Position numbers and translations under genes: made by a program. Below, piece by piece: positions 1,816 to 34,169 of a DNA stretch of 64,000 bases. The stretch comes from Escherichia coli (GTDB taxonomy: Bacteria; Pseudomonadota; Gammaproteobacteria; Enterobacterales; Enterobacteriaceae): NCBI RefSeq assembly GCF_029227855.1, contig NZ_CP074356.1; one strand, 5' to 3'. Each line of letters opens with the position of its first letter. Position 1 is the first letter of the stretch. The notes under the pieces were generated by a model. That model ran no database searches and was not told where the DNA came from. It worked only from the letters and a program-made list of their open reading frames with translations.

Positions 1816-1831
1816 CTGGATAAAAAAACAG
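1816..1831. promoter_or_regulatory. LexA (SOS) box in the uvrB promoter region
   Basis: Sequence ctggataaaaaaacag has the CTG-N10-CAG form of a LexA operator and lies about 90 bp upstream of the uvrB start. Confidence 0.75.
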
Positions 1832-11598: not shown

Positions 11599-11652
11599 CA
11601 AATGCTCCAGATATCTGCGCACCGAGAAGTGCGCAGAAAGATAATAAATGGA

Positions 11653-11779
11653 TATACTCTAAATAATTCGAGTTGCAGGAAGGCGACAATCGAGTGAATC
11701 CCCAGGAGCTTACATAAGTAAGTGACTGGGGTGAGCGAACGCAGACGCAGCACATGCAACTTGAAGTATGACGAGTATA
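11653..11779. repeat. ERIC (IRU) enterobacterial repetitive intergenic consensus element, 127 bp
   Basis: Contains the two classic ERIC core sequences gtgaatccccaggagcttacat and aagtaagtgactggggtgagcg with flanking inverted ends (agttgcagg ... tgcaactt); sits between the ybhI stop and the ybhJ start. Confidence 0.9.
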
Positions 11780-11780
11780 T

Positions 11781-13214
11781 TTACAGCATGTTCCAGCCGA
11801 TCAGCATATTCCACCACCACACGCCAAGGGTGATATGCACCAGGAAGGTTAATATCGTCAGTACCGCACCGACCAACCACCAGGATTTAATATCGTTATA
11901 ACCCACGCCAAAGATGACCGGACCTGCCGCGCCGCCATAGTGAGTAACCATGCCGCCATAGGAGTTGGAGAACAACAGTGCCAGCGCGGTTAACATTAAC
12001 GGTGCGCCGGAGACGTTCGCCAGCATGGCAAATACCGGTAACATGGCAACGATATAGGCACTACCGGAAGCGAAGAAATAACGCACGATAATGCTGAGGA
12101 AAATAATAACGAAGAAAGCAACGTTACCGTGACCATCAAATGCCAGGTTATTTTTAAAGACTTCAGCTAACCATTCGAAGAATTTAACTTTCGATAATAA
12201 GGAGCTTAAGCCGATAATACCGCCGTACCAGATTAAGGTATTCCAGCCGCCTTTATTTTTAACCACGTCTTCCCAGGTAACGATACCCAGCAGCAGCATA
12301 GTCGCCATAACAACGATTGCCACGGTGGATTCATCAACCCCCAGTGACTTACTGAAAATCCAGCCCAGCAGCGCCAGCACGAAGACACCGAGCAGCATTT
12401 TTTCGCGGATTTTCATCGGTCCCAGTTCGGCAAGGCCCGCTTTGGCGATGGTTTTGTTATCCACCTTCTTAATTTCTGGCGGATACATGGTGTAAATCAC
12501 CAGCGGGGTGACCAGCAGCATAATGATACCCGGCAATCCGGCTGCCAGCGCCCATCCACCCCAGCTAATTTGCAGGTGCAGAATGTCGTTGATCATTTTC
12601 AGCGCCAGAATGTTCCCCGCCATTGCGGTAAAGAACATATAGCTGGTGGTTTTGGTGACCATGTAAATGGACATCATCAGGTAATGTCCGACACGACGCG
12701 GACTTTTTTCCGGTTCTGACCCCAAAGCCACCGCCACGCTGTTGATGATCGGTAACACAATGCCGCCCGCACGCGCGGTGTTAGACGGTGTTGCCGGAGC
12801 CAGTACCAGATCGAGGAATACCGTAACGTAACCCAGACCCAGCGTGGTGTTACCGATTTTACCAATCAGCAGATAGGCAATACGTTTACCTAAGCCGGTG
12901 GTCACAAATGCGGCGCTTAAGGTAAACGCGGAGAACACCAGCCAGGTGGTACCTGAAGAGTAACCGCTTAATACGGCGGTGGTCTTAAACGCACCGTCGG
13001 ATAAGTTACCGACCACCACCATGGAGGCAGCAACGGCAATTAACAGTACGACAGGTTCCGGGAAAGGCTTGATAACCAGCCCCACAATGGCCGCCAGGTA
13101 AATACCAAAAAGCACCCACGCCAGTTCGCTTAATCCTGCCGGAGCTGGCATAAAGCCAATAATACATGGGATCGCTAATATCAGAATTAGCTTCCATAAC
13201 GATTTTTTATTCAT
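11781..13214 (-). CDS. ybhI: DASS-family anion transporter YbhI (putative di/tricarboxylate carrier)
   Basis: 477 aa hydrophobic ORF MNKKSLWKLILILAIPCIIGFMPAPAGL... matching YbhI. Confidence 0.92.
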   Translation of the reverse strand: MNKKSLWKLILILAIPCIIGFMPAPAGLSELAWVLFGIYLAAIVGLVIKPFPEPVVLLIAVAASMVVVGNLSDGAFKTTAVLSGYSSGTTWLVFSAFTLSAAFVTTGLGKRIAYLLIGKIGNTTLGLGYVTVFLDLVLAPATPSNTARAGGIVLPIINSVAVALGSEPEKSPRRVGHYLMMSIYMVTKTTSYMFFTAMAGNILALKMINDILHLQISWGGWALAAGLPGIIMLLVTPLVIYTMYPPEIKKVDNKTIAKAGLAELGPMKIREKMLLGVFVLALLGWIFSKSLGVDESTVAIVVMATMLLLGIVTWEDVVKNKGGWNTLIWYGGIIGLSSLLSKVKFFEWLAEVFKNNLAFDGHGNVAFFVIIFLSIIVRYFFASGSAYIVAMLPVFAMLANVSGAPLMLTALALLFSNSYGGMVTHYGGAAGPVIFGVGYNDIKSWWLVGAVLTILTFLVHITLGVWWWNMLIGWNML

Positions 13215-13289
13215 TTAAAATCCTGTTCTTTCTGTATGACTCATACAGAAGTCCTTTATTGATTGTCCTTATCCTGACAACGAATTTTT

Positions 13290-14342
13290 TCAGGGAAGAA
13301 AAACTTCACCGGAAAATATTTTTCTGGTTGTCCGAATAACAGATGCGCGTAACGTCGTGGCATCCTGACCTTCATTACTTAAATGAACGTCGAGCGCACC
13401 ACTGGGGTGTTCAATATTGATATTGCCGTATCCTATAGAAGAGACGATTTGTCGGGTGACGGTGCCTTCCAATGCACAACTACTGGAAATGGCAATAGCA
13501 CCGGTTATCGCCAGCGCGCGATGGCAAGAATGCGGCATAAAATAACGCACATTAATTGCTCCGCCTTTCTGCGCTGGAGAAATAAGCACAGGTTTAGGGA
13601 TAACCATATTACTGACATCGCCTAAGCCCATTGCTTTACCCGCTTGTAGACGGATAGATTCAATGCGAGCTAATAATGCTTTGTCGGCATCCAGTTCCGT
13701 CGGTAATTCATAGCCTGTTTTTCCCAGATATTCAGCAGGAATAATGACAACTGGCATCGCCATATCGATACAGGTCACCGGGACATCGTCAAAATAATCA
13801 ATCTGATTATCCGTCGGGAAGACTTTTCCGGTTTTGGTTCCGGCGGCATTCAGGAAAGTGAGCGCAACCGGTGCGGCAGTACCCGGTACGCCGTCAATTC
13901 TGGCGCTACCCTCGTACTCGACAACACCATTTGGCGTTTGCACATCAGCTTCGATGAACGTACCCGTATTGACGTTGCGGATACGTACGCGGGTAACTGG
14001 CGAAGTCGCTGCAATCAAACCATTTTCAATGGCGAATGCCCCAACGCCAGACAGCATATTGCCGCAGTTAGGCGTGGTATCGACACGTTGCTCATGGACG
14101 ATAACTTGAGCAAACAGATAATCGACATCAGCACGCGGATCGCTGGAACGGCTAATAATGGCGACTTTACTGGTCAGCGGATTACCGCCGCCAATACCGT
14201 CAATTTCCAGATCGTTACCGGAACCCATAATTGCCATCAATATTTTATCGCGCTGCGTTTGATCTTCGGGTAGATGTTCCGCTAACAGGAACGCGCCCCT
14301 CGAGGTTCCACCTCGCATCATCACGCAGGGTATTTTTTTCAT
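13290..14342 (-). CDS. ybhH: PrpF/AcnD-accessory-family isomerase YbhH
   Basis: 350 aa ORF MKKIPCVMMRGGTSRGAFLLAEHLPEDQTQRDKILMAIMGSGNDLEIDGIGGGNPLTSKVAIISRS... typical of the PrpF family. Confidence 0.9.
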   Translation of the reverse strand: MKKIPCVMMRGGTSRGAFLLAEHLPEDQTQRDKILMAIMGSGNDLEIDGIGGGNPLTSKVAIISRSSDPRADVDYLFAQVIVHEQRVDTTPNCGNMLSGVGAFAIENGLIAATSPVTRVRIRNVNTGTFIEADVQTPNGVVEYEGSARIDGVPGTAAPVALTFLNAAGTKTGKVFPTDNQIDYFDDVPVTCIDMAMPVVIIPAEYLGKTGYELPTELDADKALLARIESIRLQAGKAMGLGDVSNMVIPKPVLISPAQKGGAINVRYFMPHSCHRALAITGAIAISSSCALEGTVTRQIVSSIGYGNINIEHPSGALDVHLSNEGQDATTLRASVIRTTRKIFSGEVFLP

Positions 14343-14525
14343 AATAATGCCCTCAATTTAAAAACATAACTTATTGCGATATGGTTACATTAAGGGCAAA
14401 GCATCTCTAATGACTTTAGCTCAACGATTAATAACATTTTTTCATTAATTTAAGTTAGCTAAATGCAGTTAGAATTTTTAACGGCCAGTCACCCAAAATC
14501 GACGCTTCCATTTTCCGGAGTAATA

Positions 14526-15479
14526 ATGAAGCATGAATTATCAAGTATGAAGGCATTTGTCATACTGGCAGAGTCCAGTTCATTTAACAATGCCGCTAAA
14601 TTACTCAATATTACGCAACCTGCATTAACGCGAAGAATAAAAAAGATGGAGGAAGATTTACATATCCAACTATTTGAGCGTACAACTCGCAAGGTTACGT
14701 TAACAAAAGCAGGAAAAAGATTGCTCCCGGAGGCGCGGGAATTAATAAAGAAATTCGATGAAACGCTTTTTAATATTCGTGATATGAATGCTTATCATCG
14801 TGGTATGGTGACATTAGCGTGTATTCCGACCGCAGTATTTTATTTTTTACCGCTGGCAATCGGTAAATTTAATGAGCTTTATCCCAATATTAAAGTGCGG
14901 ATTCTGGAACAAGGTACGAATAATTGCATGGAATCGGTGCTGTGTAACGAATCAGACTTTGGCATAAACATGAACAACGTCACAAATTCATCCATCGATT
15001 TTACCCCACTGGTCAACGAGCCGTTCGTGCTGGCCTGTCGGCGTGACCATCCATTGGCCAAAAAGCAGCTTGTAGAATGGCAGGAGTTAGTGGGTTACAA
15101 AATGATTGGCGTACGCTCCTCCAGCGGCAACCGACTGTTGATAGAACAACAGCTAGCCGACAAGCCCTGGAAGCTGGACTGGTTTTACGAAGTGCGTCAT
15201 CTTTCGACGTCATTAGGACTGGTGGAGGCAGGACTGGGGATTTCGGCGCTTCCTGGTCTGGCAATGCCCCATGCGCCCTATTCTTCGATTATTGGTATCC
15301 CACTGGTGGAACCGGTTATACGTCGGACATTGGGGATTATTCGCCGCAAAGATGCCGTGCTTTCTCCGGCAGCTGAACGCTTTTTTGCCTTGCTGATTAA
15401 TTTGTGGACTGACGATAAAGACAATTTGTGGACCAATATCGTCGAACGCCAGAGACATGCGTTACAGGAGATAGGTTAA
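14526..15479 (+). CDS. ybhD: LysR-family transcriptional regulator YbhD
   Basis: Frame contains MKHELSSMKAFVILAESSSFNNAAKLLNITQPALTRRIKKMEEDL (helix-turn-helix) from the ATG at 14526; divergent from ybhH; the ORF-track upstream extension is rejected. Confidence 0.88.
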   Translation: MKHELSSMKAFVILAESSSFNNAAKLLNITQPALTRRIKKMEEDLHIQLFERTTRKVTLTKAGKRLLPEARELIKKFDETLFNIRDMNAYHRGMVTLACIPTAVFYFLPLAIGKFNELYPNIKVRILEQGTNNCMESVLCNESDFGINMNNVTNSSIDFTPLVNEPFVLACRRDHPLAKKQLVEWQELVGYKMIGVRSSSGNRLLIEQQLADKPWKLDWFYEVRHLSTSLGLVEAGLGISALPGLAMPHAPYSSIIGIPLVEPVIRRTLGIIRRKDAVLSPAAERFFALLINLWTDDKDNLWTNIVERQRHALQEIG

Positions 15480-33737: not shown

Positions 33738-34169
33738 CTTACCATCTCGTTTTACAGGCTTAACGTTAAAACCGACATGAGCGTAATATTCGCTGTTATC
33801 GGTGTAATTTGTTTTATATGCTAAACAAGATAGTCGAATGGTGGGGAAAAGTCACTCGAATTACGTATGAGATGCCGAATGCCACACTTTGCGTCTTATT
33901 TCTCCGACGTAAAGTTGTTTACGCAGCAAACGCGGAGTATGTCATCTGGGTTAAGAATTGAAATTGAGAGATGCCTGAATAGCAAAAAAGCGCCTTTAGG
34001 GCGCTTTTTTACATTGGTGGGTCGTGCAGGATGACTCGCTTCGCTCGCCCTACGGGCCGTCGCCGCGAGCGGCTCCGTTATTTCGCTGCGCTCAACTCGA
34101 ACCTGCTGCAGGTTCGAATCTTTGAGTATCGCAGATAGTAAAAAAGCGCCTTTAGGGCGCTTTTTTACA

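Follow-up and report, generated by a model that had tools for sequence, protein, structure and literature searches.

ybhD-ybhHIJ is a poorly understood gene cluster, widespread in Enterobacterales, that encodes a LysR regulator, a PrpF-type isomerase, a DASS-family anion transporter and an aconitase-like protein. In the stretch of Escherichia coli DNA analysed here (64,000 nucleotides, referred to as the window), a perfect palindrome lies in the short gap between ybhH and ybhI, and the question raised by this locus is what such a palindrome might do inside an operon. A first-pass annotation had seen in it a protein-binding site rather than a terminator and had proposed an internal operator controlling expression of the transporter. 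The palindrome is a real, conserved and previously undescribed but ordinary cis element, and is most likely a small mRNA hairpin beside a ribosome-binding site (RBS) rather than a known protein-binding site. Our tentative choice, to which we give a probability of roughly 0.4 and which we favour over a roadblock operator, is a stem-loop in the mRNA between the two cistrons, linked to the ybhI ribosome-binding site, that would tune YbhI relative to YbhH. A conserved element between ybhH and ybhI would be the first cis-regulatory feature to be described within ybhD-ybhHIJ, and any imbalance in the expression of enzyme and transporter might be explained by it. The implications are limited, since hairpins of this size are common between cistrons and current views are left unchallenged.

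The features of the region are as follows, in window coordinates.

11781..13214, minus strand: ybhI, anion permease (RefSeq annotation of matching records)
13212..13214, minus strand: ybhI start codon
13221..13225, minus strand: CAGGA, the ybhI Shine-Dalgarno (SD) sequence; invariant columns C36-G39 in the spacer alignment
13230..13250, minus strand: 21-bp perfect palindrome, 10-1-10; the mRNA reads UUCUGUAUGA G UCAUACAGAA
13231..13237, minus strand: conserved 3' arm core AUACAGA, invariant across Escherichia alleles
13238..13242, minus strand: variable centre; looped in most relatives, with additional stem pairing confined to E. coli
13243..13249, minus strand: conserved 5' arm core UCUGUAU, invariant across Escherichia alleles
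13263..13280, minus strand: second, weak hairpin UUGUC-AGGAUAAG-GACAA, further upstream in the spacer; a predicted fold, polymorphic
13290..13292, minus strand: ybhH stop codon TGA; the palindrome follows after 39 nt
13290..14342, minus strand: ybhH, 4-oxalomesaconate tautomerase (RefSeq annotation of matching records)
14463..15479, divergent: ybhD, LysR regulator (RefSeq records matching the region)

The perfect 17-bp repeat of the first-pass annotation (8-1-8, ctgtatgactcatacag) was found exactly at 13232-13248 on the plus strand, and the gap to which it had been assigned is a spacer of 75 nt. With 17 nt lying between the 17-mer and the first base of the ybhI start codon (A, position 13214), its placement 18 bp upstream of that codon is correct as well. 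The inverted repeat is longer than had been noted, extending over 21 bp in a 10-1-10 arrangement, TTCTGTATGA C TCATACAGAA, at 13230-13250, with 15 nt between it and the A of the ATG. Read as mRNA, the spacer runs from the ybhH UGA through 39 nt, the palindrome, AGAAC, AGGA and UUUUAA to the ybhI AUG; CAGGA stands 4 nt past the 21-mer, 5 nt past TACAGA and 6 nt ahead of the ATG.

Perfect inverted repeats in the window were counted with a minimum arm length of 10 and a maximum loop of 5. Nine such repeats are present, clear terminator hairpins among them, and dinucleotide-shuffled windows contain 0.41 +/- 0.68, with at least one in 31% of shuffles. Because a comparable palindrome turns up in 31% of shuffles, this one is by itself not beyond chance for 64 kb; it is its conservation that makes it more than chance. 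Strong perfect palindromes are clustered at window positions 33984-34168, where AAAAAAGCGCCTTTAGGGCGCTTTTTT occurs twice with TCGAACCTGCTGCAGGTTCGA between the copies, and look like duplicated bidirectional terminators.

The shuffle result lends some weight to the view that the element has no function, being a drifted quasi-palindrome or one 'perfected' by a template-switch mutation in the E. coli lineage, its apparent conservation resulting from few independent events. Variation within E. coli speaks against this. The 75-nt spacer was found in 5319 of 5426 complete E. coli genomes, at an identity of >=99% in 2930, 95-99% in 1112, 90-95% in 1000 and 80-90% in 277, and yet a 30-nt stretch comprising the palindrome and the 9 nt to the Shine-Dalgarno sequence is unchanged in 5314 of 5333 E. 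coli genomes, at a median of one and a maximum of two places per genome. In the divergent alleles that were fetched, all substitutions fall outside the palindrome. Among ten distinct Escherichia alleles of equal length (the reference and nine variants; E. albertii, with 74 nt, was left out), none of the 14 outer arm bases (7+7) is variable, as opposed to 23 of the 56 other non-SD spacer sites (Fisher p = 0.0018), and five of the seven positions of the palindrome centre vary. For E. coli alone the palindrome has 0/21 variable sites and the flanking sites 10/49 (p = 0.02). These comparisons indicate that the arms are under purifying selection and that the element is selectively maintained.

The spacer upstream of the palindrome (within window 13215-13289) is very polymorphic for the E. 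coli core genome: about a quarter of E. coli genomes differ at 5-12% of spacer positions, forming phylogroup-like haplotypes, and the arms of the weak upstream hairpin (13263..13280) are altered in alleles L052 and L054. In O157:H7 strain Z1833 (L055 1545-2890, NZ_CP062705.1), an IS1203 element of the IS3 family has entered the ybhH-ybhI spacer; it abuts the left edge of the palindrome exactly, has a TTC target duplication, and splits ybhI and its hairpin from ybhH. That an O157:H7 strain tolerates this insertion is in keeping with a palindrome devoid of function.

Orthologous loci were gathered by a YbhI scan of a genome collection and by contig look-ups, and the gene order LysR<- ->PrpF-YbhI-(CitMHS)-aconitase is conserved in about 30 of them. 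All six species-level lineages of Escherichia keep TCTGTA-N7-TACAGA, as do Citrobacter youngae, Citrobacter sp. On2M and C. koseri; the repeat is also kept, with TACGGA as 3' arm, on a contig labelled Salmonella (L057), and Citrobacter sp. MGH106 (L015) has TCTGTA-N6-TACGGA, with a loop 1 nt shorter. The TCTGTA 5' arm is retained in C. youngae, On2M, MGH106, C. koseri and L057, and the only change found in the conserved core of an arm is the A to G of TACGGA, present in L015 and L057 and leaving a U.G pair in the sense RNA. The N7 arm spacing is constant in 10 of the 11 lineages with the repeat and the TACAGA-N5-CAGGA distance in all 11, the interval from SD to ATG ranging from 6 to 8 nt. The arms are kept across Escherichia and several Citrobacter while the flanks diverge.

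Other relatives are less constant. Only E. coli has the perfect 10-1-10 form, the repeat is degenerate in C. sedlakii, and the C. gillenii group has lost the palindrome and has an unrelated, GC-richer hairpin of 7-8 bp in the same spacer. Nothing comparable was found in Klebsiella, Enterobacter, Pseudocitrobacter, Edwardsiella, Serratia or Intestinirhabdus, though the operon is shared. Such a patchy record would suit an element without function, but the arm sequence retained from Escherichia to Citrobacter, together with the near-invariance in 5333 genomes and the two tests of arm variation, leads us to regard this explanation as unlikely.

Folding of the transcript provides a second line of evidence. 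The E. coli hairpin, folded in the sense orientation, has 9 pairs and a 3-nt loop, and at -9.3 kcal/mol is more stable than composition predicts (z = -2.75); its pair probability is 0.92-0.97 in context and 0.5-1.0 across the orthologues, in 10 of the 10 tested. The RNAalifold consensus independently gives a 7-bp stem with a 5-nt loop. Spacers of Escherichia exceed shuffled sequences in structure (z = -2.9 to -3.7), an excess not seen outside Escherichia (z about -1). A long-range CCUG/CAGG helix, joining the ybhH stop region to the ybhI SD, was dropped because it was seen in one fold and was absent from others.

Across the alignment, 82% of cells are paired, with one double change in 108 cells, which is not above shuffles, and covariation support is absent (RNAalifold covariation term +0.17) because the arms are invariant. 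Three arm changes, possibly representing two events, are compatible with wobble pairing in the sense RNA, namely U-A to U.G in L015/L057 and a change at pair 8 in C. youngae; in L003 and L018, a T to C change at pair 8 disrupts the stem in the sense RNA and would leave G.U only on the antisense strand. With three sense-compatible and two antisense-compatible wobble changes, neither strand is favoured. Conservation of the arms is at the level of sequence, a pattern that would fit an RNA stem over short evolutionary distances and DNA half-sites equally well, and with nil covariation and invariant arms the RNA stem and a DNA operator are not rigorously separable.

Invariant arm sequence, a free centre, N7 spacing in 10 of 11 lineages and the lack of covariation are indeed what might be left by a dimeric transcription factor bound to TTCTGTA-N7-TACAGAA, which would act as a roadblock to RNA polymerase or control a weak internal ybhI promoter and so uncouple the transporter from the isomerase. 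An odd-length dyad such as this one, of 21 bp, is what HTH dimers typically recognise. Operators acting as roadblocks within transcription units include PurR at purB and the CcpA cre sites, and the palindrome, as a candidate site of this kind, is likewise a dyad downstream of the promoter and inside the operon. An operator also draws support from the strong up-regulation of ybhH in a delta-ybhD mutant and from the listing of ybhH and ybhI among predicted YbhD targets (PMC9068703). YbhD ChIP-exo, however, gave a single peak, which is at yihQ, and none at the palindrome (PMC8464067 supplement).

Several further observations weigh against protein binding. A scan found no sigma-70-like promoter near the palindrome on the sense strand; the best candidate found by hand, AGGACA-18-TATGAG, lacks the -7 T and its -10 element is not conserved. 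A search for further copies of the motif, one of the checks suggested, turned up no second copy in the window, and one place per genome is typical in the 5333 E. coli genomes. A metagenome scan with TTCTGTAT-N5-ATACAGAA returned at least 120 stretches; about 18 of the matches listed are ybhH-ybhI, the rest are unrelated and mostly in low-GC contexts, and no second enterobacterial locus is among the matches listed. The half-site change in L015 and L057 is asymmetric, and in L015 the spacing is altered as well, yet both still fold; moreover, a DNA site would have no reason to keep a constant distance to the SD. An operator appears to us less probable than an RNA stem. Of the first-pass description, the denial of a sense-strand terminator holds, no U-run following directly. 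A function connected with ybhI expression is also probable, given that the arms are under purifying selection and the distance to the SD is fixed at 5 nt, whereas the claim of a protein-binding operator found no positive support.

The palindrome also fits none of the known binding-site motifs tested. A LysR T-N11-A site was rejected, since the centred positions of the palindrome read G-N11-C and its sequence is unrelated to ATTAAT-N11-ATTAAT. The latter, a textbook LysR-type T-N11-A dyad, occupies window positions 14427-14449 between the divergent ybhD and ybhH, 14-36 bp ahead of the ybhD start, and is flanked by an imperfect inverted repeat, TTAGCTAAC...GTTGAGCTAA; from its sequence it is likely to be the autoregulatory/operator site of YbhD, and the palindrome's lack of resemblance to it is a further point against an operator. 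With the LexA SOS box the palindrome shares CTGT...ACAG termini and AT-rich arms (CTGTAT...ATACAG), but it reads CTGT-N9-ACAG where the box is CTGT-N8-ACAG (CTG-N10-CAG), and it is absent from the 25 matches to CTGTN8ACAG at up to one mismatch. LexA-box geometry with one mismatch is present at window 1816-1831, CTGGATAAAAAAACAG (reverse complement CTGTTTTTTTATCCAG), which we take to be the uvrB SOS box, uvrB being expected in this chromosomal neighbourhood. The NikR operator is GTATGA-N16-TCATAC; both half-sites occur exactly in the E. coli palindrome, but they are 1 bp apart instead of 16, and these inner bases of the palindrome are those that vary among Escherichia species, the half-sites not being conserved in other Escherichia. 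The N16 pattern has two matches in the window (two mismatches each), neither at the palindrome. Spacing also fails for CRP, TyrR and lux-box motifs, the identity of the centre ATGAGTCAT with the eukaryotic AP-1/GCN4 site was treated as coincidence, and the palindrome sequence itself had no match in searchable papers.

We favour an RNA element, for five reasons: its position inside an operon spacer without a promoter-like site; the fixed distance to the SD; the survival of the fold where symmetry or spacing is broken (L015, L057); the replacement of the palindrome by a different hairpin in one Citrobacter clade; and the failure to find evidence of a binding protein, there being no second site, no resemblance to the ybhD/ybhH dyad, a single YbhD ChIP-exo peak elsewhere, and a YbhD study whose account of delta-ybhD is confined to strong up-regulation of ybhH (PMC9068703). 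The palindrome would be a cis element of the ybhH-ybhI(-ybhJ) transcript, most likely working as RNA. The polycistronic mRNA is predicted to fold into a short AU-rich stem-loop, ancestrally of 7-8 bp and probably lengthened to 9-10 bp in E. coli, which would lie 39 nt past the ybhH stop and place the TACAGA core exactly 5 nt before the ybhI Shine-Dalgarno sequence. We propose that the structure would mark off the ybhI ribosome-binding site on its 5' side, insulating that site from upstream sequence and/or giving a protective stem at a processed RNA end; either role would set the amount of YbhI transporter relative to YbhH. The analysis shows the sequence, its single copy, purifying selection on the arms, the constant spacing to the SD and the predicted fold; that the element acts as RNA, and that it influences translation or mRNA stability, is our inference. 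Searchable Term-seq/dRNA-seq supplements have no entries of RNA 3' ends or transcription start sites for ybhH/ybhI, a point against the stem-loop.

Intercistronic stem-loops that tune operon expression are known from papB-papA, from the malE-malF REP hairpins and from RBS-proximal insulating hairpins. The present element resembles them in lying between two cistrons, in forming a short, stable hairpin whose stem is conserved and whose loop is free, in adjoining the downstream RBS and in lacking a U-tract. It differs in being single-copy and not REP/ERIC and in having an AU-rich stem of only -9 kcal/mol, and any processing site or differential stability is putative here. The modest, AU-rich stem, the conservation of the arms as sequence in place of covariation, and the other genera that have the same operon without a comparable structure all count against a stem-loop.

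The same stem-loop might also be a translational switch, in which the 5' arm UUCUGU would pair either with the 3' arm, leaving the RBS open, or with the SD ACAGGA, closing it; some sRNA or RNA-binding protein could then capture the purine-rich 3' arm and turn the transporter off independently of YbhH. When the 3' arm was complemented in a simulation, SD accessibility fell from 0.48 to 0.03, but the effect was not robust under a neutral constraint (3' arm unpaired) or across orthologues, and the anti-SD idea was demoted for this reason. Such a switch, or alternatively a putative repressor using the dyad as an intra-operon roadblock, strikes us as improbable. CsrA-bound leaders have several GGA motifs, the SD among them; four are present in the 75-nt spacer, of which the upstream ones are not conserved, and the CsrA CLIP-seq supplements searched contain no ybhH or ybhI entry.

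Translation of the spacer itself would offer another way of coupling. A mini-ORF of nine codons at 13215-13244 on the minus strand (ATG AGT CAT ACA GAA AGA ACA GGA TTT TAA, MSHTERTGF) has its AUG in the palindrome centre, and its UAA stop directly abuts the ybhI AUG; ribosomes translating it as a leader would open the stem and be coupled to ybhI. The AAGGA 7 nt upstream and the UAAAUG junction are suggestive, and the frame is intact in E. coli, L002, L017 and L019. Its AUG, however, is missing in Escherichia sp. MOD1, in E. albertii and in every Citrobacter that keeps the hairpin, and the peptide changes freely (SH to NN, RT to SS), which makes a leader ORF very improbable.

Termination is hardly more promising. 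On the sense strand the palindrome does form a hairpin, as a Rho-independent terminator would, but it has only three G-C pairs and is followed by AGAACAGGA, without a direct U-run. The first-pass statement that a T-run is lacking on either strand stands for the sense strand, where AGAACAGGAUUUUAAAUG comes next; on the plus strand, which is antisense to ybhI, the tail TCCTTTATTG passes a permissive terminator rule. A terminator of an antisense (plus-strand) transcript through ybhI could be imagined from that tail and from a plus-strand fold of -9.7 kcal/mol. Three G-C pairs and an interrupted T tail argue otherwise, no plus-strand gene was seen upstream, the nearest promoter-like site is about 1 kb upstream, and terminator-like calls are as numerous as shuffles predict; among the explanations considered, we give this one the least credence. 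No relevant Rfam covariance-model match was obtained at E <= 10 in 12900-13600.

Families of dispersed repeats (REP/BIME, ERIC/IRU) were rejected on copy number, the palindrome having a median of one copy per genome against 11 for the ybhI-ybhJ spacer. The reading preferred here remains the stem-loop at the ybhI ribosome-binding site, and two neighbouring features may be recorded beside it. In E. coli 266917_2 (L056, NZ_CP026723.1), ybhH is annotated as a truncated pseudogene that is missing its N-terminus, and the spacer, the palindrome and ybhI are all intact. The ybhI-ybhJ spacer, of 158 nt, contains a dispersed repeat at window positions 11640-11775 on the minus strand, present in up to 20 copies per E. 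coli genome (median 11); by its sequence it is presumably an ERIC/IRU-like element, and it would give a large RNA structure between ybhI and ybhJ.
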